DNA of 64,000 bases, taken from assembly GCA_965231155.1 (NCBI GenBank), contig OZ246418.1, positions 238,850 through 302,849 on the forward strand. Direction: 5' to 3'. The notes under the pieces are model-generated. The model worked only from the letters and a program-made list of their open reading frames with translations, was not told where the DNA came from and ran no database searches. This document shows positions 29,683 through 64,000 of the stretch, in pieces. Position 1 is the first letter of the stretch, and each line of letters starts with the position of its first letter. The DNA comes from an uncultured Candidatus Saccharibacteria bacterium. GTDB lineage: Bacteria > Patescibacteriota > Minisyncoccia > UBA6257 > 2-01-FULL-56-20. A program made the translations under genes and the position numbers.

Positions 29683-29858
29683 CCACATCTCCTTACTGAC
29701 TGTTTTATACACTTTTTAAAACATTTAGTCAATATAGCCTCTCCTTTTTAGATTTTCACAACTTCCTCCCACACTAAGTACCCGTTTATCCATCACCCTT
29801 TCCCGTCATCCTCCGCCCTGCAATAAAAAATAACCCAACACGTGGGTTATTTTTTATT

Positions 29859-30191
29859 GTGGAGATGGGCGGAGTCGAACCGCCGTCTAAAGATGAAGGT
29901 CGCGGACCTTCTACGAGTGTAGTCTAGTGAACTAGGCAAATCGATCCATATTTTTTAGTCCCGGAAGCATGAATCAAACTTTTCGGGACGAGCTTCCTTA
30001 TATAAGACCAGGACTAACCTAAGAAGCCCAGGCTAGCTGATCCTCCACCGAGCTAGGCTCGGCTTAGCTTACGCAAAAGCGAAAGCTGGAGCTGCAACGC
30101 GTTGGTTGGCAGTATTGTTTTTTGCCGGTTTAATGAGTCAGCGCTCAACTCGCCAGTTCGGACATCATCTCTATCGAAGCCGGTCATCCCC
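29859..30191 (-). ncRNA. ssrA: tmRNA (SsrA), standard one-piece
   Basis: 5' GGGGAUGACCGGCUUCGA...; 3' tRNA-Ala-like end GGCGGUUCGACUCCGCC-CAUCUCC-A with a G3:U70 pair; tag frame GCC AAC CAA CGC GUU GCA GCU CCA GCU UUC GCU UUU GCG UAA (ANQRVAAPAFAFA*). Confidence 0.85.
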
Positions 30192-43576: not shown

Positions 43577-43651
43577 TGGGGTGCCTATCGGGATTCGAAC
43601 CCGAGATAACAGGACCACAACCTGTCGTGTTGCCACTACACCATAGGCACC
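43577..43651 (-). tRNA. tRNA-His (GUG) with encoded G-1 and CCA
   Basis: Hand-folded cloverleaf: acceptor GTGCCTA/TAGGCAC with G-1:C73, anticodon loop TTGTGGT, T-loop TTCGAAT. Confidence 0.85.
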
Positions 43652-45911: not shown

Positions 45912-45983
45912 TGCGCCCGCTTGGAATCGAACCAAGGACCCACGTCTTATAAGGGCGTTGCTCTACCACTGAGCTACGGGCGC
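45912..45983 (-). tRNA. tRNA with anticodon UAU (Ile, AUA-decoding) by hand fold
   Basis: Acceptor GCGCCCG/CGGGCGC, D-arm GCTC/GAGC, anticodon stem ACGCC/GACGT (one mismatch) with loop CTTATAA, T-arm CTTGG-TTCGATT-CCAAG. Confidence 0.7.
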
Positions 45984-46889: not shown

Positions 46890-46963
46890 GCGGGTATCGT
46901 ATAATGGTCATTACTTCAGTTTTCCAAACTGAAAACAGGGGTTCGATTCCCCTTACCCGCTCC
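46890..46963 (+). tRNA. tRNA-Gly (UCC)
   Basis: GCGGGTATCGTATAATGGTCATTAC...anticodon loop TTTTCCAAA...GGGGTTCGATTCCCC...TACCCGCT. Confidence 0.85.
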
Positions 46964-52544: not shown

Positions 52545-54071
52545 ATGAGCGTCCAGAATCTGGCGACGCTTTATTCCGCCGAGCTCGAAGGTGTTGATGC
52601 ACGGCTTATTGAAGTTGAGGTCGACCTGAATGTTGGCCTCCATTCGTTTACGATTGTTGGTCTGGCTGACAAAGCACTGAACGAGGCGAAGGAGCGAGTA
52701 AACTCAGCGCTCAAGAATTCTGGCGTAAAACCACCGAACCAAGAAAATCGGAGGATTACCATAAGCCTCGCACCAGCTGATGTAAAAAAATCTGGTTCGC
52801 AGTATGATCTGGCGTTAGCGCTTGGATATTTAGCGGCGACAAAACAGATTGCCCCATTCGATACAAAAAATAAAATATTCGTCGGCGAGTTGGCGCTTGA
52901 TGGACGCGTTCGTCCAGTGAGTGGTGCTTTGAGTATTGCTGAGATGGCCGGACGCCTGGGATTTTCTGAAATATATTTACCCACAGAAAATGCTCACGAA
53001 GCTTCCGTGATTAAAAATATTTCGGTTTTTGCCGTGTCTCGATTACAAGACGTTATTGTACACCTGGAAAATAAATCCCTTCTTCATCCGACGGTCTTTA
53101 CGCACGAAGCAGAGGAGAGAATTTCGACGATCGACTTTTCTGAAATTAAAGGGCAGGGGAATGCCAAGCGTGCACTACTAATTGCCGCAGCTGGCGGACA
53201 TAATGTCCTCCTAGTGGGTAGTCCGGGAGTAGGGAAGAGTCTTCTCGCTCAGGCGCTTTCCGGAATTCTTCCACCACTGAATCTCGAAGAAGCAATTGAG
53301 GTAACAAAAATTCAAAGCGCCTCAGGACTTCTACCTAAAGGGCTAATTACTGACCGCCCATTTCGCGCTCCTCATCACACGGCCTCATCCGTGGCGATCG
53401 TGGGCGGTGGACCACAACCAAAACCTGGAGAGATAAGTCTCGCCCACCGCGGTGTTCTTTTTCTGGACGAGGTTCCGGAGTTCCAGAGAAATGTATTAGA
53501 AGCGTTGCGCCAACCATTAGAAAGTGGGAGTGTGAACATCTCGAGAGCGAAAGGAACACTCACCTTTCCGGCGCGCTTTTCCTTGGTTGCCGCTATGAAT
53601 CCCTGTCCGTGTGGTTTCTTTGGCGATCAGGAAAAAGAATGTCGTTGTGGCGCATATGAAGTGATCCGTTATCAGAAAAAAATATCCGGCCCACTTTTAG
53701 ACCGTATCGACTTACAGGTCAGAGTTCCTCGAGCCAAAATTGAAGAATTACAAAAAAGGAATGAGGGTCTAAAAGAAAACGCAGATATTAGGGAGCAGGT
53801 AACGCGCGTACGTCAGATTCAAGAAAAACGATTTCGTTCTCTCCCGATTCAGGTCAATGCTGAAATGTCCTCAAAACACACTGAGGAGTTCGCGCCCCTC
53901 ACTCCGCAAGCTCACGACTTTATGTTCTCTCTCAAAAACCACCACCTCTCTCCCCGGGGTTATTATCGACTACTAAAAACCGCCAGAACTATTGCCGATC
54001 TGGAAGAAAAAGAAATTGTTGACCTTCCCCATGTGGCTGAAGCGTTTAGCTATCGATTGCGAGAAGAGTAA
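52545..54071 (+). CDS. comM: YifB/ComM-family Mg-chelatase-like AAA+ ATPase
   Basis: Lon-like N-domain, Walker A 'LVGSPGVGKSLLA', Mg-chelatase ChlI-like core. Confidence 0.85.
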   Translation: MSVQNLATLYSAELEGVDARLIEVEVDLNVGLHSFTIVGLADKALNEAKERVNSALKNSGVKPPNQENRRITISLAPADVKKSGSQYDLALALGYLAATKQIAPFDTKNKIFVGELALDGRVRPVSGALSIAEMAGRLGFSEIYLPTENAHEASVIKNISVFAVSRLQDVIVHLENKSLLHPTVFTHEAEERISTIDFSEIKGQGNAKRALLIAAAGGHNVLLVGSPGVGKSLLAQALSGILPPLNLEEAIEVTKIQSASGLLPKGLITDRPFRAPHHTASSVAIVGGGPQPKPGEISLAHRGVLFLDEVPEFQRNVLEALRQPLESGSVNISRAKGTLTFPARFSLVAAMNPCPCGFFGDQEKECRCGAYEVIRYQKKISGPLLDRIDLQVRVPRAKIEELQKRNEGLKENADIREQVTRVRQIQEKRFRSLPIQVNAEMSSKHTEEFAPLTPQAHDFMFSLKNHHLSPRGYYRLLKTARTIADLEEKEIVDLPHVAEAFSYRLREE

Positions 54072-54172
54072 CCTTGCTAATCTTCTTTGTGCTGAAATGT
54101 CTCTCTGAAGAAGGTTGCAATTGGGTCATAACTCTTGTAGAAAGAAGACAGAGTGCTTGAAAGGAGGAGGTT

Positions 54173-54646
54173 ATGCGCACCGCTATGTTGGTGACTACCT
54201 TTTTGTTTCTCTCTGGATGCTCCCTCGTTGCTTCCACGAGGGGACAGGAGCTGACGGTGAGCGAGCCTAGCTTGGTTGGCCCATCGCCAGTGGCCATCGA
54301 GGTCACTGAGTTCTACTACGGAGAGAGGACCAGGGAGGCAGTGGCATTTTATGCCAACTTTCTCAGCTTCCTCGAAGCAGAGTGGCGTCAAGCGTGTGCC
54401 ACCGGAAGATCGATTAGCACCGCCTGTCTCTACCAAAACAGACGGATATCGATAAGCCACAATGGCCACGTAGCGATGGTGGCGATCATTCCACCGATCG
54501 TCACCGAGGAAACCATACTTCCGCAAGTGGCAACGGCCGACGATGTCGAGAGGGAAACGCCAGTCTTTGCAGCCAAGAGGATGGCCCACGAGACGGCCCG
54601 AGCCCTTGGCCTCCTACGGCCCCTTCTTCGAAAATACCAACGCTAA
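54173..54646 (+). CDS. Lipoprotein (hypothetical) in a GC-rich patch
   Basis: AGGAGG Shine-Dalgarno; lipobox 'LFLSGCS'; terminator downstream; the antisense ORF 54077..54589 is rejected. Confidence 0.5.
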   Translation: MRTAMLVTTFLFLSGCSLVASTRGQELTVSEPSLVGPSPVAIEVTEFYYGERTREAVAFYANFLSFLEAEWRQACATGRSISTACLYQNRRISISHNGHVAMVAIIPPIVTEETILPQVATADDVERETPVFAAKRMAHETARALGLLRPLLRKYQR

Positions 54647-54659
54647 GTTGATCTAGAGA

Positions 54660-54697
54660 CCCACGCAAAATTTCTGCGCAGGGTCTTTTTTTATCTG
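54660..54697 (+). terminator. Rho-independent terminator
   Basis: gaccc...gggtc hairpin followed by TTTTTTTAT. Confidence 0.5.
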
Positions 54698-54752
54698 CCA
54701 TATCAGCACAATCTCTAGCTATTTTTTTGTCTCCGAGTTAAAAATAAACGTA

Positions 54753-56582
54753 ATGTCTTCTTTAAATCCTCAACAGAAAAAAGCAGCGGAATCACCAGCG
54801 GGACCACTCCTCATCGTCGCCGGAGCGGGAACCGGAAAAACACATACTCTGACGCATCGTTTTCTACATCTTATTGAAAGTGGTGTCTCGCCAGATAATA
54901 TCTGCGCCATCACCTTCACCAATAAGGCGGCCAAAGAAATGTCTGAACGTATTAGAAAAACGGTACCGCATCTTCCGGCAACACTTGGCGTTTTTCCTTA
55001 TGGCTATATTGGAACTTTCCATGCACTCGGCGCAAAAATTCTTCGTCGTGAGACGCCTGCGTTCGGACGAAAAAAGAATTTTGCTATTTTTGATGATGGT
55101 GACAGCTGGAGTGTTATTAAAAAGATCGCCAAAAAATATGCTGACGAAAAACCAAAGTTAATGCCGGGGGAGATTGGAGAAACAATTACTCATATTAAAA
55201 ACGGCATGCTACCAATCGAAGAACTCGAAAATGATCAAAGGATCGACCGACAACTTCTTCTGCAAGCCTACCACGAATACGAAGCCTCTCTTGAAAGACA
55301 GAATGCCTTTGATTTCGATGATCTTTTGGAAAAAGTAGTTCGGTTATTTTCTACCGCTCCGGAAGTTCTTCAGAAATATCGAAAACGATTCACTCATCTC
55401 TTGGTCGATGAGTATCAAGATATCAACAATATCCAGTATGAGCTGATTAAACTCTTAGCGGGGGAGTCGCGCAATATCAGCGTGGTCGGTGATCAGAATC
55501 AAACGATTTATAGTTTTCGCGGTTCGAACATTAATATCTTTCTGAACTTTCCTAAAGACTGGCCGGGAAGTCAGGTGATTGTCCTCGAGGATAACTATCG
55601 TTCGTCGGGAAATATTCTTGAAGCCGCCTCCACGCTGATTGCTCAAAACAGCATCCGTCTTGAAGAAGCGAGTGGGAAACTCCGCGCCGTGAATCCACCA
55701 GGTCCAATGATTCAACTTTACGAAGCTTCAAACGAAGAGGAAGAGGCTGAGTGGGTTGGAGGAAAAATACAAAGCGCGATTATCTCGGCAGAGATGGAGA
55801 ACAGCCCACAACAAACAATGGCGGTGCTCTATCGAACGAATGCTCAATCTCGGGCCATCGAACAAACACTTTTGGCCCGCGCCATTCCTTATCGAGTCTT
55901 TGGCGGACTGAAATTCTACGAACGACTAGAAGTTCGTGATGTGATTGCCTCGGTACGCTACCTCTCAAATCCTGAAGACGAGGTGAGCAAAACACGCCTC
56001 GAGAAAAATATTACCAAAACTAAGTTCAAACTATTTGCCGAAAAAGCAGGGGAGATAAGAGAGCTAAAACCAACCCAGGCGATCACGGCCTTTATGAGAA
56101 CTGTTAGTTATATTGAACACCTCGAAAAACATTATCTGAATGTTTCCGAACGACAGGAAAATATCATGGAGCTTCTTCGATTTGCTCAAAACTTTTCAAC
56201 CCTAGAAGATTTTTTAGAACAGGTCAGTCTTTTGCAATCAACCGATCAGATAAAAGGGGAGACTCCTTCAAACCTTCCGCCAGTTACCCTGTCGAGTATT
56301 CATCTCGCGAAAGGCTTAGAATTTGACGAGGTTTTTTTGATCGGCGTAAACGAATCGATCTTGCCTCATGCCCGCTCCTATGGCACACTGGCCGAGCTCG
56401 AAGAAGAACGACGACTCCTCTACGTGGCAATGACTCGCGCCAGAAAGAAGCTATCCATCAGTTTTCACGATCTTCCTTCTCGCTTCTTATCCGAACTCCC
56501 TCAGGAGCTTCTCTCAATCGAAAGCCGAAATGGTGAGATAAGAGACTTCGACGACGAGGAACGGTACATCACCTTAGATTAA
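54753..56582 (+). CDS. UvrD/PcrA/Rep-family ATP-dependent DNA helicase
   Basis: Walker A 'AGAGTGKTHTL', motifs 'LVDEYQDIN', 'VGDQNQTIYSFRG', 'HLAKGLEFDEVF'. Confidence 0.9.
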   Translation: MSSLNPQQKKAAESPAGPLLIVAGAGTGKTHTLTHRFLHLIESGVSPDNICAITFTNKAAKEMSERIRKTVPHLPATLGVFPYGYIGTFHALGAKILRRETPAFGRKKNFAIFDDGDSWSVIKKIAKKYADEKPKLMPGEIGETITHIKNGMLPIEELENDQRIDRQLLLQAYHEYEASLERQNAFDFDDLLEKVVRLFSTAPEVLQKYRKRFTHLLVDEYQDINNIQYELIKLLAGESRNISVVGDQNQTIYSFRGSNINIFLNFPKDWPGSQVIVLEDNYRSSGNILEAASTLIAQNSIRLEEASGKLRAVNPPGPMIQLYEASNEEEEAEWVGGKIQSAIISAEMENSPQQTMAVLYRTNAQSRAIEQTLLARAIPYRVFGGLKFYERLEVRDVIASVRYLSNPEDEVSKTRLEKNITKTKFKLFAEKAGEIRELKPTQAITAFMRTVSYIEHLEKHYLNVSERQENIMELLRFAQNFSTLEDFLEQVSLLQSTDQIKGETPSNLPPVTLSSIHLAKGLEFDEVFLIGVNESILPHARSYGTLAELEEERRLLYVAMTRARKKLSISFHDLPSRFLSELPQELLSIESRNGEIRDFDDEERYITLD

Positions 56583-56584
56583 TT

Positions 56585-57355
56585 ATGCAAAAACTTGGCC
56601 AACACTTCTTAAAAGATACGAAAGTTCTCGAGAAAATTGCGGGGCAGATTGACGCAGGAACAACTCATATTATAGAAATTGGTCCAGGACATGGAGAACT
56701 CACAAAACAGTTAAGAATTCAAAATAAAAAAGCTAAGATTATCTCTATCGAGAAGGACTCGCGTCTGGCTCAATCTCTCACAGAATACTTTTTTGATGAC
56801 CCTCTTACAGAGATTGTGGAGGGCGACGCCCTAAAGATACTCCCTTATATAATAGAAGCGCGCAAAAATGAACTTGAGAAGTACACACTTATAGGAAATA
56901 TTCCCTACTATATAACTGGTTATCTTCTAAGAACCGTCAGCGAACTAGACGCTTATCCCGAAGAGACCACCCTTCTGATACAAAAAGAGGTGGCTGAACG
57001 AATCACCTCGCACCCACCAGAGATGAATCGGCTCGCCGCCAGTGTTCAGTTCTGGGGAGATCCAAAAATTGTACTCACTGTGCCGCCCGGCGCTTTTAAT
57101 CCACCTCCGAAGGTTGATTCTGCCGTTATTAATATCCTCACCAAAAAAAATTTTCCAGTCGATAAGGCTCGATATTATGAAACAGTTCGTCTCCTTTTCG
57201 CTCAGCCAAGAAAAACTATCCTCAACAACCTGTCCGAGAAAATCTCTAAAAAAGAATCCTCTGAGCTTCTGGAGAAATTAGACATTCCACTCGGAGATCG
57301 CCCCCAAAACCTCTCCATAGAAAAGATTGTAGCAATTACCGAAAAACTTTATTGA
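56585..57355 (+). CDS. rsmA: 16S rRNA (adenine1518/1519-N6)-dimethyltransferase
   Basis: 'LGQHFLKD', SAM motif 'IIEIGPGHGELT', 'IGNIPYYIT'. Confidence 0.9.
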   Translation: MQKLGQHFLKDTKVLEKIAGQIDAGTTHIIEIGPGHGELTKQLRIQNKKAKIISIEKDSRLAQSLTEYFFDDPLTEIVEGDALKILPYIIEARKNELEKYTLIGNIPYYITGYLLRTVSELDAYPEETTLLIQKEVAERITSHPPEMNRLAASVQFWGDPKIVLTVPPGAFNPPPKVDSAVINILTKKNFPVDKARYYETVRLLFAQPRKTILNNLSEKISKKESSELLEKLDIPLGDRPQNLSIEKIVAITEKLY

Positions 57356-57435
57356 TAGAAGGTGGCGATGGGCTGTGTATATCCCAAACTAACTCACGGG
57401 AGTTTTTTTGACATACAATATAGAAGTAACATCAA

Positions 57436-59307
57436 TTGCTTTTTTCTATGCTCGACGACTCAAGAAAATGGACTCTTATCGTGCTTGGACTTGTGCTCAT
57501 AGTGAGCGTTTCTAGTTTTTTCTTCACCGGATTCTCACCAGAAAAAAGACCTGGCCAACTCGATATCACTGGGACAAAAAACCAAAACTCCTCACCCTTA
57601 AGGAGCGGCTATCAAACGGGGAACTCCTCGGGACAGGAAGCTGCGATAATGGAACCAGTGAGGCTCCCATCTTCAAACGCCACTGAAAATTTAGCCTATC
57701 TTCTTTCTAATAATACTGCCATCTCCTACCAGGCTGGAGTGGCTACGAAAGGCGCCTTCGCTCCGGTTTCTAAAGAGGCAGTGAGTGCGGCGGTTACCCT
57801 TGTCGCCACCAAGGCATTAGAAGAAACAAATGTCACTCCCTCCACTTTTGTAGTTATCGAAAAACCAACCATCAAGGAAGTAGAAACATATTTTGAACAA
57901 GTTACAAAGATTCTCAAAGAAGAGGCAACTAATCCAGCCGTTGATCAGGTAGCGAAGAATGGAATAACTCTGACGAAGATACGTGCGGCTCAGGCCGTTT
58001 TCGCAACACAGGAGAAAAAAATCCTTGCCCTCAAGGTTCCAAAGAATTTTTTAGAAGTTCATAAAAAACTTCTTTCACTCACAAGAAATTACCGTTTGTT
58101 CTTTGAAAGCGCAGCCCACTACAAAGATGATCCGCTAAAGGCAGTATTCGTAGTTCAAAATAAACAACCACTACTGGCTCGACAGGGGAATGATCTGGTT
58201 AATGAAATAAAGAAACTCACCACCAAGAAGGCAGCGCTTACACCAACTCCTCTTGAAGAACTTTTAGGAATCAAGAAGGTTGAAGCCCAACAAGCAGTTT
58301 TTGACGCCACTGTTTTCGGCCAGGCCATAGCGAACTTTGCCGAAGACGTAGCCTTCTACGCAGAAGACCTGGCTAACTGGGCAACAGAATACGCTCAAAA
58401 AATACTCGAGTGGACGAGAAAATTAGCTACTGAACAGATGAAAAACACTCTCATACAACTTTTTGTGAAACAGACCGTTGGGTGGGTAAATGGCGGGGGA
58501 GAGGCTCAGTTTGTAACCAACTGGAAGCTTTTCGCTCAAGATGCAACGGCTCGAGGAACACAAAAAGGATTTACCGAAATTTCTGACTCGGCATGCGCCA
58601 CATTTGGACCATCAATTATCAGACAGCTTGGTGATTCTTATAACACCTTTTATCGTCCAGAAAATTGCCGTAAAAGCCCCACCGGAGAAGCTCTCGGTCA
58701 GTTTAGAGATAATAACTTTTTTGATGGAGGGTGGGGAGCGTATGGCTTAGCAATTAGTCCGAAAGGAAACTACTTCCAGAGCTATGTCGAGAACTCAACA
58801 AAGATTGGAGAACTTGCGGCTGAAGAAAAAGAAGCGGCCCAAAATGATGCCTTGGCCAATAGTGGTTTCAAATCAACAAAAATCTGTATCGACACTCCAG
58901 GAACTCCTGCACCAGATCCAGATGGGAGCTGTCCAGATGGTTCCGAACCGATAAATACAACCCCCGGAGTGGCACTGAAGGCAACGCTCGACAAAGCGCT
59001 TCAGGCTCCTGTGGATCGCATCGCAAACGCCGATGACTTGGTTGATTTGGGTTTTATTCTCTCCAACTCAGCACTTTCTAATATAGTAAGCGCCAAAGAA
59101 AAGGGTCTTTCCGGTCTCCTGGGTGGTGGCAATATAGCTGGTAGTCCAACTGATCCAGCCAATCTAAACCTGGAAAGTACCTGCGCCTCCTATGAGGAAA
59201 ACTCCACTGAATACTCCAGTTGTATGCTGATCGCCGGTGCTTCTACCGGATCAGCTTCACAAATCATCACCAATTTAGATAATCAGATTACGACTGCTCA
59301 GCAGTAG
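57436..59307 (+). CDS. Large signal-anchored extracytoplasmic protein, paralog 1 of a tandem pair (unknown family)
   Basis: TM 'WTLIVLGLVLIVSVSSFFF'; ~250-aa block 'LEWTRKLATEQMKN...FGPSIIRQLGDSYNTFYRPENCRK...DGGWGAYG...DGSCPDGSEP' shared with 59408..61864. Confidence 0.55.
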   Translation: MLFSMLDDSRKWTLIVLGLVLIVSVSSFFFTGFSPEKRPGQLDITGTKNQNSSPLRSGYQTGNSSGQEAAIMEPVRLPSSNATENLAYLLSNNTAISYQAGVATKGAFAPVSKEAVSAAVTLVATKALEETNVTPSTFVVIEKPTIKEVETYFEQVTKILKEEATNPAVDQVAKNGITLTKIRAAQAVFATQEKKILALKVPKNFLEVHKKLLSLTRNYRLFFESAAHYKDDPLKAVFVVQNKQPLLARQGNDLVNEIKKLTTKKAALTPTPLEELLGIKKVEAQQAVFDATVFGQAIANFAEDVAFYAEDLANWATEYAQKILEWTRKLATEQMKNTLIQLFVKQTVGWVNGGGEAQFVTNWKLFAQDATARGTQKGFTEISDSACATFGPSIIRQLGDSYNTFYRPENCRKSPTGEALGQFRDNNFFDGGWGAYGLAISPKGNYFQSYVENSTKIGELAAEEKEAAQNDALANSGFKSTKICIDTPGTPAPDPDGSCPDGSEPINTTPGVALKATLDKALQAPVDRIANADDLVDLGFILSNSALSNIVSAKEKGLSGLLGGGNIAGSPTDPANLNLESTCASYEENSTEYSSCMLIAGASTGSASQIITNLDNQITTAQQ

Positions 59308-59407
59308 GGGAATTTCTGTTTTATTTTTGGTTGTGTATATCTGAAACGCTCACGAAAGAGTCGGTTTTGCCCTATAATATAGAAGGTGGAATACGTTTCG
59401 CCCTCTT

Positions 59408-61864
59408 ATGCAACCGGATCTTAAAAAACTGATTACGGCATTTTTGGGAGTAGCACTCTTAAGTAGTGCTTTTAGCCTTGCTTTTATGCACTCCGGCGCC
59501 TTCCAGAATGAAAACGGAACAAGTAATGCTAACGGAGGTCTAACCCAGGAACAACGAAATGCATTCGCAGACATTTCTCTGGTTACTCCTCCCTGGAGAA
59601 CCTCTCAGGCTTTCAGCACTTCCGAGCCTGATATATTTACTTCTTCGAATCTGACTGAAAACTTTTCTCAGGCTCTTTCAAATGGAGTTTTTGAGGCTGC
59701 CAACAAAGAAAAGGCCTTTGATCAAGATAGTCTTAGTCGTGCAGTGGAAAAAATACAGTCCCGTATTTTTGAAGAGCCTCAAGTTCCTCTCCGCGATATC
59801 CAGATGAACGACAAGGCCAGCTGGGAAGAAAAAGTTGGCTATGTGAAAAGTGTTCGGGACATTATCAAAGAAACTGCTGAAAATCCTCTCTATAAAAATC
59901 TTGGTACAACAAAACTGGACACCGAACAAACCGAGGCGCTAAAAACTCTTTTCGAAAAACAACGAGGGCAGATAGTAACACTGAAAGTTCCAAAGGTAAT
60001 GGTGCCACTACACAAGGCCCTTCTCTCTTATAATTCTGGAAATCAAAAATTCTTCGAAGGACTAGGGGCATATGAAAAAGACCCGGTAAAAACTCTTCTG
60101 ATGCTTCAGCACAGAGAAGAACTACTTGGCGGTTATGCCACCAAGCTGATTGCCGAGCTCGACAATGTTGGTCCAGCCCTCAAGGTAAGTTATCTGGAAG
60201 AAAATAAGCCCTCTTGGATTCAGGATAGCGTTCTCTCCCTCTTTGCACCAAAAGTGGCTTACGCGACTGCACCGGTTATCGATTACTCAAACCTGGCGAA
60301 CGCGATTGCCAGCTTTATTGGTGATGCTATCAAGTATGCAAAAGATGCAGCCCACTTTATTAAAACCGAACTTGATGCCGCTCTGAAATGGGTGCAGACA
60401 CAACTCGAATGGGCAGAAAAGTTAGCCACTGAACAGCTGAAGAATGTCCTTGTTCAGTTGATGGTCCGCGCCTCTGTGGCCTGGGTAAACGGCGACGGCT
60501 CACCTCAGTTTGTAACCAACTGGCGTGTCTACACTGATGATGCCTTTGGCCTGGGGGTTGGAAAGGGCCTCGATGAAATCTCTGACGAAACCTGCGGAAT
60601 GTTTGGGCCTTCTATGATCAGACAGCTTGGCGATTCTTATAATACTTTCTACCGCCCCTCGAACTGTCGACAAACAGAAACCGGTCGAGCGTTAAGCACT
60701 TTTAGGAACAATAATTTTCAGGATGGAGGATGGGGGGCTTATGGTGTAGCCGTTAGTCCAAGAGGGAATTATTTCCAGAGCTATGCGAGAAATGCCGAAA
60801 AGATAGATCAGAGCGCCGAAAAAGAAGCTGAAGCAGCAATCAGTGACGCAATGGCTAGCAATGGATACAAACCAACCAAGGACTGTCCCGAATATGCCAG
60901 ACAAGCTCTCTCTAGTGAAGATTCAGCAAGTAGTCCTGCTGAGGGAGGTGAATTTTCTACAGACCCTCTTCCGGACGGAAGTTGTCCAGATGGTTCGGAA
61001 CCTCAGAACACCACGCCAGGAGCGATTATTGGCGAGGTTGCGAACAAAGCCTTCACTATCCCTGGTGATCGCATCGTAACTTCACAAAACCTTATTAGTC
61101 TTGGCTTCACCCTGGCAAACGGCGCCCTGACAAAAGTTATGACGGCAAAGAACAAGGGGCTCACAAGCCTAAACGATGGCGCTGCCCTCGGAGCTGCCGG
61201 AGAAAATGCCTCTTACAACCTTGCAGATACATGTTCTCGTTTTGCCTCTGGCACTCCTGGAAGAACCGACTGTCTCAATAATGTTGGTGCGGCCGAAGAG
61301 GTACAGACAAATCTTGATCTCAGAAATGCCAGCACTTCTAGACAGGCAGCTGATGATCAAGCACTGAGCAACCTGAAGAGCGATGCTGATAGTATCGCCC
61401 AGAACATAAACTCAACGATTTCTATTAATACAGAAACTATGTCTGTTATTAATGAACTCACTGTTGATCCCGATCTTCTTGGTCGAGTGATCCATATCTG
61501 CGGAAATCTAGGATTAAGCGAGCCTGGGCAGGAACGAATTCCTGAGGCACGAAGTCTTCAGGCCGACCTAGCGCAGTTAGGTCAAAACATCCCAGGAACA
61601 AATGTTGATAGAGATCTGATGGCAGCTCACCTATCAATCCTGAATCAGTCTAGAGATGCGAATCTACTACCAAGTTTGTTTACTCAGTTCACTACGAATT
61701 ATGGGACTGTTGCATCAACAACTGATGCCCTTTCTTTTGCCCAGAATCGCCGTGTCGCTGTCCGCCAGATTAAAGTCCAAGCCGAAGCCACCATCGCCAA
61801 GGCTTGCGATCCTTCGACTCCGTTTTCGACTTCCACAATTCCTGCCCTCATCCAGAACCCATGA
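59408..61864 (+). CDS. Large signal-anchored extracytoplasmic protein, paralog 2
   Basis: Same conserved block as paralog 1 ('LEWAEKLATEQLKN...FGPSMIRQLGDSYNTFYRPSNCRQ...DGGWGAYG...DGSCPDGSEP'), plus a longer C-terminal region. Confidence 0.55.
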   Translation: MQPDLKKLITAFLGVALLSSAFSLAFMHSGAFQNENGTSNANGGLTQEQRNAFADISLVTPPWRTSQAFSTSEPDIFTSSNLTENFSQALSNGVFEAANKEKAFDQDSLSRAVEKIQSRIFEEPQVPLRDIQMNDKASWEEKVGYVKSVRDIIKETAENPLYKNLGTTKLDTEQTEALKTLFEKQRGQIVTLKVPKVMVPLHKALLSYNSGNQKFFEGLGAYEKDPVKTLLMLQHREELLGGYATKLIAELDNVGPALKVSYLEENKPSWIQDSVLSLFAPKVAYATAPVIDYSNLANAIASFIGDAIKYAKDAAHFIKTELDAALKWVQTQLEWAEKLATEQLKNVLVQLMVRASVAWVNGDGSPQFVTNWRVYTDDAFGLGVGKGLDEISDETCGMFGPSMIRQLGDSYNTFYRPSNCRQTETGRALSTFRNNNFQDGGWGAYGVAVSPRGNYFQSYARNAEKIDQSAEKEAEAAISDAMASNGYKPTKDCPEYARQALSSEDSASSPAEGGEFSTDPLPDGSCPDGSEPQNTTPGAIIGEVANKAFTIPGDRIVTSQNLISLGFTLANGALTKVMTAKNKGLTSLNDGAALGAAGENASYNLADTCSRFASGTPGRTDCLNNVGAAEEVQTNLDLRNASTSRQAADDQALSNLKSDADSIAQNINSTISINTETMSVINELTVDPDLLGRVIHICGNLGLSEPGQERIPEARSLQADLAQLGQNIPGTNVDRDLMAAHLSILNQSRDANLLPSLFTQFTTNYGTVASTTDALSFAQNRRVAVRQIKVQAEATIAKACDPSTPFSTSTIPALIQNP

Positions 61865-63810
61865 TCTCAACACTCTCTTCCTGGAAAAAGTTTTTCGTTA
61901 TAGGCCTTCTTTTTTTAGCCCTCTTCTCTCAGGCTCTCTCTCCTGTACACGCAGCCAGTAGCACAGTTAACTTCCAGGCAGTGGCCAAAGAAGGACCAAC
62001 GACAAATCCTTGTGCGTGGAGAAGTCCTTCAACTTGGCCGGCCTGTTTCCTGGTTGCCGCTGCGTATCCCATTGGACTACTCGTCAGCTTCGGAGCTTAT
62101 CTTGTTGAGTGGGGGCTTATCATCAACTCTGAACTCGCCTACACCGAGATGATCAAGGGGGGATTTGGTGTTACCTTGGGAATTACGAACCTTTGTTTCG
62201 TGCTGGCTATTATCGTCATCGCCATAGCCACCATTATTGGCTACGAGTCGTATGGGATGAAAAAGAATCTGTGGAAGCTCATTGTGGCAGCTTTGTTAGT
62301 GAACTTCAGTTTGGTTATTTGTTCGGTCATCATTAGCTTCTTCGATCAGTTCGCCTACTACTTTGCAAGTAAGATGGGAAATCAAGGGTCAGGGCATTCT
62401 GGAGTTTCTCTCCAGTTGGCCAATATGTTCCAGTTAAACAAACTCGCCGCTTGGAGTTTCGGTGGAACATTAAGTAGGGTAGGCGCCTTCGTGGCAGTAC
62501 TTATAGGAATTCTATTGGCCGAGATATTGATCTTCTTCACCCTGATGGCGGTGGCCTTGAGTCTCATCGTTCGTTACTTCTATCTCTCGATTCTCATGAT
62601 TCTCATGCCTATCGCCTGGCTCAGCTGGGTAGTTCCAGGAATGCAAAAACACTGGAGCTCGTGGTGGGAAAAATTCATTCAGTGGGCGATCAGTCCAGCA
62701 CTCCTTCTGGCCTTTCTCTACATCGGCCTCTCTATTATGTCGAGCACCTCGACCACCGATACGCTTCAGCGATGGAACATTGCAGGGCGAGGTGGGGCTG
62801 GAGATGTCATAGATAATGTAGCCCCGCCAGAAGGAGGTGGTCCAGGATTCCTCGAGACTATTATGAAGATGTCAGTTGGACTGGCGTTGACCTGGGGTGG
62901 TATTGTAGCCGCCAACTCCGCTGGCGCGAAAGGCGCAGCCACCATTGTTGGCTGGGGAAATAAAGCGGGTAAGGTGGCAAAAAATCGTGCCACAATATTT
63001 GGGAAAAGAGCAGCAACTTATCGTCTACGACGACCCCAAGGGAGGGCCACAACCGAACGCATGCAAACCCTAGGAAATAACAGCAACAGCGCCTTCCTTA
63101 GAACCATTGCTGCTCCGGTCAGAATGGCTGGCACTGCGCTCTCGAATGCCAGAATAGAAGGAGAAAAAACACTCCACGAGTCAGAGAAGGCATACAAAGA
63201 TATGCCATTAGTAGAACAGGCACGACGTTTTGGCTCGACTCGTTTCGAAGACGAGGGTGCTCGATTTGCCATTCTTCACAATATTTACAAACCAATAGAA
63301 GAAGCCGAGAAGAAACAACGCGACCTTATTGAGAAACGAGAAGAAATCGAAAAGAGGAGAACCAAGGTTGACACCGAAAGAAGACGAACCTTCATAGAAA
63401 AAGGCGAAGGCTCGGCTGAGTACAAGGCTGTCACCGAACGGGCAACGAAGATAGAGAACGAATACACAGAGGTGAATGGAAATATTACGAAAGCTCATGC
63501 AGAAGTTGTGAAAACCCAAAAACTTCTTGATTTACTACCGAAGAATGCTCGCGAAGATCTCGGAACATTTAGCAATCTAACCAGCCTGCCCGGTCGCGTA
63601 GGAGATGTGAAATATACAAACACCAAATATGGAAGAATGTTCGTCCTTTATGGCGAACATGAAAAGAAACATAAAAAATCGCTCGAAGACGAGCTCAAAG
63701 AACGTTTTTCGAAAAAAGAAGATGACCATGGGGATGGTCACGACGCAGCGGGAGGTCATCCGGCGCCACAAGCTCCCACCTCAGGAACAGCAGACGAAGC
63801 CCATCACTAA
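61861..63810 (+). CDS. Polytopic membrane protein with a long charged coiled-coil C-terminal tail (VirB6/TrbL-like topology)
   Basis: ATGA start/stop overlap with the upstream gene; signal peptide 'MISTLSSWKKFFVIGLLFLALFSQALSPVHA'; at least 6 TM helices; K/E/R-rich ~250-aa C-terminus. Confidence 0.5.
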   Translation: MISTLSSWKKFFVIGLLFLALFSQALSPVHAASSTVNFQAVAKEGPTTNPCAWRSPSTWPACFLVAAAYPIGLLVSFGAYLVEWGLIINSELAYTEMIKGGFGVTLGITNLCFVLAIIVIAIATIIGYESYGMKKNLWKLIVAALLVNFSLVICSVIISFFDQFAYYFASKMGNQGSGHSGVSLQLANMFQLNKLAAWSFGGTLSRVGAFVAVLIGILLAEILIFFTLMAVALSLIVRYFYLSILMILMPIAWLSWVVPGMQKHWSSWWEKFIQWAISPALLLAFLYIGLSIMSSTSTTDTLQRWNIAGRGGAGDVIDNVAPPEGGGPGFLETIMKMSVGLALTWGGIVAANSAGAKGAATIVGWGNKAGKVAKNRATIFGKRAATYRLRRPQGRATTERMQTLGNNSNSAFLRTIAAPVRMAGTALSNARIEGEKTLHESEKAYKDMPLVEQARRFGSTRFEDEGARFAILHNIYKPIEEAEKKQRDLIEKREEIEKRRTKVDTERRRTFIEKGEGSAEYKAVTERATKIENEYTEVNGNITKAHAEVVKTQKLLDLLPKNAREDLGTFSNLTSLPGRVGDVKYTNTKYGRMFVLYGEHEKKHKKSLEDELKERFSKKEDDHGDGHDAAGGHPAPQAPTSGTADEAHH

Positions 63811-64000
63811 CGATCTACTTTCTCCACTAAACTACACACACCTACATGCCAGAAGATACACAAATGACCAATGAAGAAATCCGCGAGATGCTTGTCACGG
63901 CACCAGTCTGGGACAGTATTGTGTGGGATGCTATTCAGGAAGGAGATTACGCGCTCGTAGAGTCTCGTTTTGCAGATCTTCTTAAGGGTGAGTTGGAAAG

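Follow-up and report, generated by a model that had tools for sequence, protein, structure and literature searches.

What function do two large paralogous proteins serve when their genes stand in tandem before the gene of a VirB6/TrbL-like membrane protein in a bacterium of the Patescibacteria? This question is raised by the terminal locus of a 64,000-nucleotide (nt) stretch of DNA, hereafter the window, from an uncultured Candidatus Saccharibacteria bacterium (contig OZ246418.1, positions 238,850 to 302,849). The locus contains three genes, A, B, and C, and lies at the promoter-proximal end of a type IV secretion system (T4SS) operon, which is chromosomal, of monoderm type (MPF_FATA-derived), and belongs to a Paceibacteria-like Patescibacteria bacterium. 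The family to which A and B belong is specific to this T4SS type and represents a component of which no description was found in the open-access papers searched; the T4SS itself is known. Proteins A and B are likely to be integral extracellular components of this T4SS. The complete statement, in which the locus is a T4SS operon, C is its platform, and A and B are exported subunits located at VirB6, is modestly favored. A VirB5-like role of A and B is possible and is proposed here tentatively.

Gene arrangement and identity of the secretion system

A three-gene terminal locus had been reported in an initial annotation of the window, and the open reading frame (ORF) coordinates of A, B, and C confirm it at the positions noted. 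All three genes are co-directional.

57448-59307, + strand: gene A, gene-caller start ATG 57448, 619 amino acids (aa)
59408-61864, + strand: gene B, 818 aa, full-length family member
61861-63810, + strand: gene C, 649 aa, extended VirB6/TrbL-like polytopic membrane protein
63846-64000, + strand: 5' end of the next operon gene, 734 aa in full, continuing beyond the window

The maximal ORF of gene A spans 57436-59307, with a TTG start and 623 aa. Gene C starts at ATG 61861, within an ATGA (61861-61864) that it shares with the stop of B; this overlap had been noticed before, and the B-C pair is translationally coupled. The gene order can be read as rsmA, A, B-C, a gene for a proline-rich 734-aa protein, prgI/virB3, trsD, and virB4. 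The window does end before any ATPase gene, as had been noted: virB4 was found only on an extending contig (L001; Logan, 18.4 kb), which was retrieved by the exact sequence of C. Over the 12,140 nt that it shares with the window, this contig shows 0 mismatches, and it reaches 6.1 kb past the window end. It carries five genes after C.

L001:11986-14190 (window 63846-64000 and beyond): proline-rich protein, 734 aa, 12% Pro, hydrophobic segment at aa 208-226
L001: PrgI/VirB3, 174 aa, PF12666 at 32.1 bits (cutoff 27)
L001: TrsD/VirB4-N-terminus-like protein, 252 aa, NCBIfam TrsD NF041427 at 3.8e-9, below the curated cutoff
L001: VirB4 ATPase, 573 aa, NCBIfam conju_CD1110 at 7.7e-116 and 388 bits (cutoff 325)
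L001: two-transmembrane (TM) protein, 290 aa, the last of the five

The 252-aa protein additionally has a precomputed PF26593 TraC-like match and a VirB4_plasma N-terminal match (9.3e-12), and the VirB4 ATPase also matches P-loop_TraG, AAA_10, and DUF87. The presence of PrgI, TrsD, and VirB4 downstream, together with the TrbL matches of C described below, supports the T4SS reading of the initial annotation. A T4SS- or conjugation-like apparatus fitting an episymbiont had been suggested there, and the downstream search for a VirB4-type ATPase was positive. Genes of PrgI, TrsD, and VirB4 thus follow C, rather than unrelated housekeeping genes. Housekeeping genes were observed in the upstream DNA, of which 20 kb was sampled (ClpB-type ATPase, IF3, ThyA, DHFR, FolD, SHMT, and FtsH). 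The genes called on the 18-kb contig include neither a relaxase nor a coupling protein. Genes of PF18895 T4SS_pilin (VirB2-like) proteins occur 2-3 genes after virB4 in four syntenic loci of relatives (L002, L004, L006, and L031).

The proline-rich 734-aa protein has no family match. Only its N-terminal ~450 aa are conserved among close relatives, and its slot is filled elsewhere by unrelated ORFs of 400-720 aa. It is a possible wall-spanning, VirB10-like component.

The T4SS of Patescibacteria was described by Quinonero-Coronel et al. 2025 (PMC12102498). As in that system, the present operon is chromosomal, of the monoderm MPF_FATA type, with a separate TrsD followed by VirB4, a PrgI/VirB3, and a VirB6-like protein; no relaxase appears in the called genes, ksgA/rsmA is nearby, dnaA is nearby in relatives, and VirB2-like pilin genes occur, here in the syntenic operons of relatives. 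Unlike the described system, a large two-module gene stands between rsmA and virB6, and it is tandem-duplicated in the window genome. The conjugative system of pCF10 is similar in its VirB6-like protein (PrgH), PrgI/VirB3, CD1110-type VirB4 (PrgJ), and monoderm envelope, and it has a VirB2-like protein (PrgF). The differences are the A/B-like gene present here and the relaxase and coupling protein of pCF10, which conjugates DNA. The locus itself is therefore mostly confirmatory, being a known kind of system.

Some side observations concern virB4. It is encoded in two genes, 2 nt apart, at L001:14836-17318 (~window 66696-69178), one for the 252-aa TrsD-like protein and one for the 573-aa ATPase; the TrsD-plus-VirB4 arrangement is reported to be typical for Patescibacteria (PMC12102498). 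In another genome (P0005; L007:15858-17560), virB4 is present as pieces of 243 and 318 aa, and an intact 573-aa form exists in a sister assembly (L006). The break is probably an assembly error or a frameshift.

The VirB6-like protein C

Gene C, aa 11-294: signal-peptide-like segment and hydrophobic helices
Gene C, aa 396-649 (nt 63046-63807, + strand): charged tail

The topology that had been described for C was recovered: the protein starts with a signal-peptide-like segment, has 6 or more hydrophobic helices, and ends in a charged tail. The signal-peptide-like segment occupies aa 11-29 (...ALSPVHA/AS), and five strong hydrophobic segments follow at aa 61-79, 108-126, 140-158, 210-228, and 276-294. 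A further hydrophobic stretch is visible right after aa 228, for which the 19-aa scan gave no separate call. The tail has 254 residues, 35% of which are K/R/E/D, and is presumably cytoplasmic.

The likeness of C to VirB6/TrbL, also suggested earlier, is supported by family matches of C and its homologs. C has a precomputed match to PF19590 TrbL_3 (E<=1e-5). Among 33 homologs of C, TrbL PF04610 was matched by 2 (4.3e-6), TrbL_4 by 2 (1.4e-6), and NCBIfam CD3337/EF1877, a VirB6-type family of monoderm integrative and conjugative elements (ICEs), by 5 (2.4e-5); the monoderm ICE family Mbov_0396 was also matched. PF19590 was returned by hmmscan for 0/33 homologs, including those with the precomputed match (P0008-P0104), so the TrbL_3 model is probably missing from the Pfam copy used by hmmscan.

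These matches bear on the idea that the locus is unrelated to secretion and that C is a transporter among housekeeping genes. Such an idea could draw on the hmmscan of C itself against the current Pfam and NCBIfam copies, in which no significant family and no TrbL was obtained, and on hhalign of the C-family profile against the single Agrobacterium tumefaciens VirB6 sequence, which reached only a non-significant E of 0.07. However, PrgI, TrsD, and VirB4 lie on the same strand 2-4 genes downstream, so that C shares an operon with VirB3 and VirB4, and the idea is already refuted by this arrangement. The precomputed TrbL_3 match, the TrbL, TrbL_4, and ICE VirB6-type matches of the homologs, and the conservation of the operon in the fetched Patescibacteria loci with enough flank oppose it as well, and it can practically be discounted. 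Judged from sequence, it is highly probable that C is a VirB6-like polytopic platform and that the locus is a T4SS operon.

A large family in a fixed position before virB6

A word-indexed search with B, and then with an 8-sequence profile, returned 7 relatives, all from metagenome-assembled genomes (MAGs) of Patescibacteria, and suggested an orphan family. This was overturned by an exhaustive HMMER search with the same profile, in which 4,516 cluster representatives were obtained at E<=1e-3 and 595 at E<=1e-30. The relatives range from 487 to 1,296 aa in length, and those with a name are annotated as 'hypothetical protein'. No relatives on plasmids were found by tblastn with one family member. 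Nothing above threshold was obtained for A and B in Pfam, NCBIfam, or PHROGs, and no Pfam or NCBIfam assignment for the conserved parts was obtained in the more than 60 family members scanned.

This last result is relevant to the view that A and B make way for the T4SS through the cell wall as hydrolases of the VirB1/PrgK type. VirB1 analogs of monoderm bacteria are likewise large and N-terminally anchored, and VirB1 homologs are seldom found beside virB4 in Patescibacteria (PMC12102498). On the other hand, no lysozyme, SLT, CHAP, M23, or peptidase domain was present in the members scanned, the core described below has no invariant acidic residue, and a separate LysM-M23 gene lies nearby in related loci. 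The hydrolase reading was rejected on the missing domains and is very improbable.

Loci containing the family came from 3 sources: look-ups of exact protein sequences, a scan of GTDB species genomes with a pattern, which yielded 15 loci, and retrieval starting from VirB6. The genome pattern scan used a 10-sequence subset of the alignment, as the larger alignment was too divergent. Every fetched family locus with enough flank shows uvrD, rsmA, family gene, virB6-like gene, variable ORF, prgI, trsD, and virB4 in this order. Two family copies are present only in the window genome, and a single copy exists in the other fetched loci. Several genomes show an overlap, or almost no gap, between the stop codon of the family gene and the virB6 start codon, and in 3 MAGs at NCBI the family gene and the virB6-like gene have adjacent locus tags. 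The scanned loci carry the labels Paceibacteria/Paceibacterota, Liptonbacteria, and Minisyncoccia, or come from MAGs labelled 'uncultured Saccharibacteria'; the VirB6-side loci add Wolfebacteria and Nomurabacteria.

A second alternative places A and B outside the machine, as surface adhesins or exported effectors that are its substrates or share only their regulation with the T4SS. The C-termini differ in length among the relatives of 487-1,296 aa, and a few long members show weak C-terminal matches to PKD or galactose-binding (F5/8 type C) domains. A diverged tandem duplication exists in this genome, and no PrgB-type adhesin was found in the published surveys (PMC12102498). However, conservation is far stronger in the core, where W, C, F, G, and N residues are invariant in 49 diverse members, than at the ends, and the slot before virB6 is fixed, with overlapping or nearly overlapping stop and start. 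A conserved core and a fixed slot are typical of stoichiometric machine subunits, not of effectors, and the adhesin or effector explanation is regarded as quite unlikely.

Several side observations were made on the surroundings of the operon. A string of genes consisting of a ComM/Mg-chelatase-like gene, a variable gene, uvrD, rsmA (ksgA), and the T4SS operon is found in the window (52545-57355) and in loci L002-L024; it is kept among genomes that share no more than 25-45% identity in their T4SS proteins. Beside the operon of L031 lies rnpA-rpmH-dnaA, fitting the reported origin-proximal location. Insertions within the operon were seen elsewhere, namely a 23S_rRNA_IVP gene between prgI and trsD (L002:16872-17228) and a PDDEXK_3 gene before prgI (L030:11037-11465).

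Two modules separated by an AxA site

Gene A: TM helix aa 10-28; N-module; V-E-A at the AxA position, nt 58279-58287
Gene A, 58396-59124, + strand: conserved core, aa 317-559, without the C-terminal helical domain of B
Gene B, 59429-59485, + strand: TM helix, aa 8-26
Gene B, 59648-60181, + strand: helical N-module, aa ~81-258
Gene B, 60257-60265, + strand: hydrophobic stretch and A-Y-A, aa 284-286
Gene B, 60395-61177, + strand: cysteine-containing core, aa 330-590
Gene B, 61220-61807, + strand: C-terminal helical domain, aa ~605-800

That the two large proteins are paralogous was borne out by BLASTP (38% identity over 664 columns, E 1e-135), and the motif strings quoted for them are present. 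Identity is unevenly distributed: the shared block (B330-590, A317-559) is 57% identical (139/243), and the N-terminal half ~28%. The six cysteines of A pair with the first six of B in the alignment, and the last ~180 residues of B have no counterpart in A. The block had been described as conserved, cysteine-containing, and not assignable to a known domain; this description stands, with the change that the block is not confined to this genome and defines a very large family. A neighbor-joining tree places A on a branch below the clade formed by B and its orthologs, suggesting that A is either an old duplicate that was lost elsewhere or a fast-evolving recent duplicate.

Each protein has one N-terminal hydrophobic helix, as proposed earlier, and basic residues precede it. 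From this single helix with its preceding basic residues, and from the conserved cysteine pairs, export is predicted. The term 'secreted' that had been applied to A and B holds for a large extracytoplasmic part, and the proteins are better described as membrane-anchored.

Structure prediction had also been recommended for the shared block. An AlphaFold2 (AF2) run with 8 sequences was unusable, with a predicted local distance difference test score (pLDDT) of 54, and was repeated with 49 sequences. The resulting model of B is of moderate quality and almost wholly helical, with almost no strands, and no significant Foldseek match in the PDB was obtained. It can be divided into a TM helix (aa 5-29), a disordered linker, the N-module (aa 82-258, pLDDT 85-95), a low-confidence segment (aa 260-297), a 68-residue helix (aa 293-360), the cysteine-containing core to ~aa 580, and a confident C-terminal helical domain (aa 605-800). 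Among the 49 diverse members, the invariant residues are D225 and P226 in the N-module and W359, C396, C420, F432, F437, G440, and N454 in the core. No invariant acidic residue exists in the core of these members, which points to a structural protein and not to an enzyme.

The modules are separated by the motif [L/F-L/I-x-x-L/I-F/L-G-I/V]-K-x-A-H-A. Of 151 representatives, 143 have Ala at -3, the others having V, T, or S there, and 148 have Ala at -1, with G in the remainder; every one of these exceptions is permitted by the -3/-1 rule of signal peptidase. The corresponding residues are A-Y-A in B (aa 284-286) and V-E-A in A.

A split form of the family was found in Ca. Wolfebacteria (L030:5613-7995, GCA_024654025.1), where two genes fill the slot between rsmA and virB6. 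The first encodes 288 aa and covers profile positions 7-268, that is, the TM helix and N-module (E 1.8e-22); the second encodes 497 aa and covers positions 298-762, the core (E 9.8e-89). The N-terminus of the 497-aa protein, MNRIITKAILGFLIFLMIFALPGLFLKTEKKANA/VLALL…, is a classical signal peptide, and its A-N-A is aligned with the internal AxA. In the fused A and B, the stretch equivalent to this signal peptide is internal and shorter, and the AxA is 95-98% conserved. A Nomurabacteria locus similarly has a 275-aa N-module gene followed by a gene for a 1,001-aa signal-peptide protein that is too divergent for the profile. The split form with its own signal peptide indicates that the core was originally, and in some lineages is today, an ordinary Sec-exported protein. 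The family is composed of two modules, a TM-anchored helical N-module and a cysteine-containing all-alpha core, with the AxA between them. By sequence comparison, A and B appear as a core fused behind a membrane-anchored module, with a putative signal-peptidase-type site retained.

The anchor and the fold bear on a third alternative, according to which A and B are bitopic wall-spanning scaffolds that replace VirB8/PrgL or VirB10 and brace the channel, instead of forming a VirB5-like cap. The predicted N-in bitopic topology with a large ectodomain is that of VirB8 and VirB10, the synteny with virB6 is strict, and VirB8 homologs are rarely detectable in Patescibacteria, so another protein may substitute (PMC12102498). 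However, an all-alpha prediction differs from the NTF2-like alpha+beta fold of VirB8/PrgL, and the T4SS cluster of Southlakia epibionticum has an NTF2-like protein, SEML1_0012. The core of the split form is an ordinary signal-peptide protein, ill-suited to a membrane-anchored scaffold, and the proline-rich 734-aa neighbor is a better VirB10-type candidate. The anchor topology suits VirB8, but a VirB8 assignment of A and B was rejected on the fold, as almost no strands are predicted. The scaffold reading as a whole is considered unlikely.

Proposed role of A and B

In the proposed mechanism, the N-module would be an N-in membrane anchor with a helical ectodomain of ~180 aa. The core would be an exported, all-alpha part of ~300 aa, stabilized by the conserved cysteine pairs and probably cut, or at least hinged, at the AxA. 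It may assemble on the VirB6 platform, at the extracytoplasmic side, and function as a stalk, tip, or adhesin subunit that could help the VirB2-like pilins or touch the host cell. Protein A, without the C-terminal domain and with a promoter-like element of its own, would provide an alternative form of this subunit. The most specific version, in which A and B are VirB5-type stalk or tip pro-proteins that are cleaved at the internal AxA, assemble at VirB6, and nucleate or cap a VirB2-like pilus on hosts, with the tandem paralogs as alternative tips, is speculative and rather doubtful.

Several likenesses point toward VirB5. The family gene adjoins a virB6-like gene, and virB5 of pTi likewise precedes the gene at the VirB6 position. 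In R388, VirB5 plays a stalk role on the VirB6 pentamer (PMC12857230). With the diderm VirB5-VirB6 stalk (R388 TrwJ/TrwI, 7o3v; pKM101 TraC, 1r8i; pTi), A and B share the gene position directly upstream of virB6, the predicted export, the all-alpha prediction, the long helix after a signal-peptidase-type site, and VirB2-like pilins in the operon type. The profile matches are weak. One family member gives TrbJ_Ti at E 0.041, and the C-terminal PKD or galactose-binding-type matches of a few long members are a similarly weak hint. Sub-threshold matches to DUF4141 recur at the AxA and the following helix (0.017 and 14.9 bits for A; at best 2e-5 and 24 bits, versus a cutoff of 30). DUF4141 proteins adjoin traJ/VirB6 in Bacteroides elements, as the A/B genes adjoin a VirB6 homolog, and TraI of CTnDOT is reported to be homologous to VirB5 (PMC4027160); DUF4141 was equated with TraI of the MPF_B system on the basis of gene position in published tables. 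Homology to Bacteroides TraI is not established, since all DUF4141 matches of A/B fall short of the Pfam gathering score (30 bits) and cover a signal-peptide-like stretch.

Other results weigh against this interpretation. A and B have no significant match to VirB5 or to any known T4SS subunit in the profile, sequence, and fold searches: hhalign of the family profile against the single A. tumefaciens VirB5 sequence and a sequence search of the PDB returned nothing, and the best Foldseek match in the PDB had an E of 0.19. Compared to diderm VirB5, A and B are 3-4 times larger, have a fused membrane-anchored N-module, are rich in cysteine, and belong to a monoderm system. The DUF4141 matches may be partly compositional, since they cover a signal-peptide-like stretch. 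The AF2 model of B has an overall pLDDT of only 71, with 60-90 in the core. No family gene stands before virB6 in L028 or in the Saccharimonadia-type loci, namely L029 and that of S. epibionticum (SEML1_0013); virB6 is the first gene in all three, and L029 has a divergent pilin array. The family is therefore not universal in Patescibacteria T4SSs. Finally, no pilin genes were seen for this genome, the available sequence of which stops 6 kb past the window, one gene after virB4. A and B are thus not assigned to the VirB5 family, and VirB5 homology is not demonstrated.

A link to the Pam pilus, suggested by a single weak match to NCBIfam CPR_pilus_PamR, was also rejected, as Pam pili are Ig-like and assembled by donor-strand exchange.

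The importance of the family lies in the system that it accompanies. The T4SS cluster SEML1_0006-0019 is essential for the epibiotic growth of S. epibionticum, the sole species tested (Wang et al. 2023, PMC10633639). The surveys list VirB4, TrsD, VirB3, VirB6, and VirB2-like pilins, with VirB8 being rare and no extracellular tip or adhesin (PMC12102498). In pCF10, no VirB5-like protein could be found (preprint 10.64898/2025.12.18.695078). With more than 4,500 representatives, a position locked before virB6 in Paceibacteria-type lineages, predicted export, and both fused and split forms, the A/B family is a candidate for the missing extracellular part.

Upstream elements of A and B

57355-57365, + strand: first exact copy of ATAGAAGGTGG, overlapping the rsmA stop codon TGA 57353-55
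57374-57430, + strand: upstream region of A, with TGTGTATATC at 57374-83, TACAAT at 57414-19, and ATAGAAGTAAC at 57420-30
59332-59389, + strand: upstream region of B, with TGTGTATATC at 59332-41, TATAAT at 59373-78, and ATAGAAGGTGG at 59379-89

An 11-mer, ATAGAAGGTGG, had been noted upstream of both paralogs. Exactly two copies exist in the window, at 57355-57365 and 59379-59389, which are 2-5 nt off the coordinates first given. With 1 mismatch allowed, 4 matches are found against 0.88 expected, a number reached in 3/100 shuffles, so that the recurrence alone is borderline. The upstream regions of A and B are colinear over ~80 nt with a mean column identity of 77% (TGTGTATATC … TA(C/T)AAT-ATAGAAG…). 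Relative to the colinear, degenerate copy, the exact one at 57355 is 66 nt further upstream; it could represent either a coincidence or a second, incomplete version of the element. The copy before B is contained in a 16-mer, TATAATATAGAAGGTG, which occurs exactly upstream of the ortholog in one other species (L006/L007/L012), the protein of which is only 42% identical.

The element upstream of B looks like a promoter, with a putative -10 box and transcript start, and that of A would be a degenerate promoter-like or leader element. Neither was called by a simple sigma-70 scan, because no good -35 is present. A role of the 11-mer as a shared ribosome-binding site was rejected, given the distance of 18 nt from its end to the ATG of B and the degeneracy of the colinear copy of A. 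The repeat noticed earlier is instead regarded as part of a promoter-like element.

Other features of the window

An ORF of 153-157 aa at 54173-54646 (+), between the ComM-like gene and uvrD, has a lipoprotein-like signal (MRTAMLVTTFLFLSGC…) and no Pfam match on record. Additionally, one transfer-messenger RNA (tmRNA) gene and three tRNA genes were identified by Rfam matches at the gathering score.

29857-30191, - strand: tmRNA gene
43580-43650, - strand: tRNA gene
45912-45983, - strand: tRNA gene
46890-46961, + strand: tRNA gene

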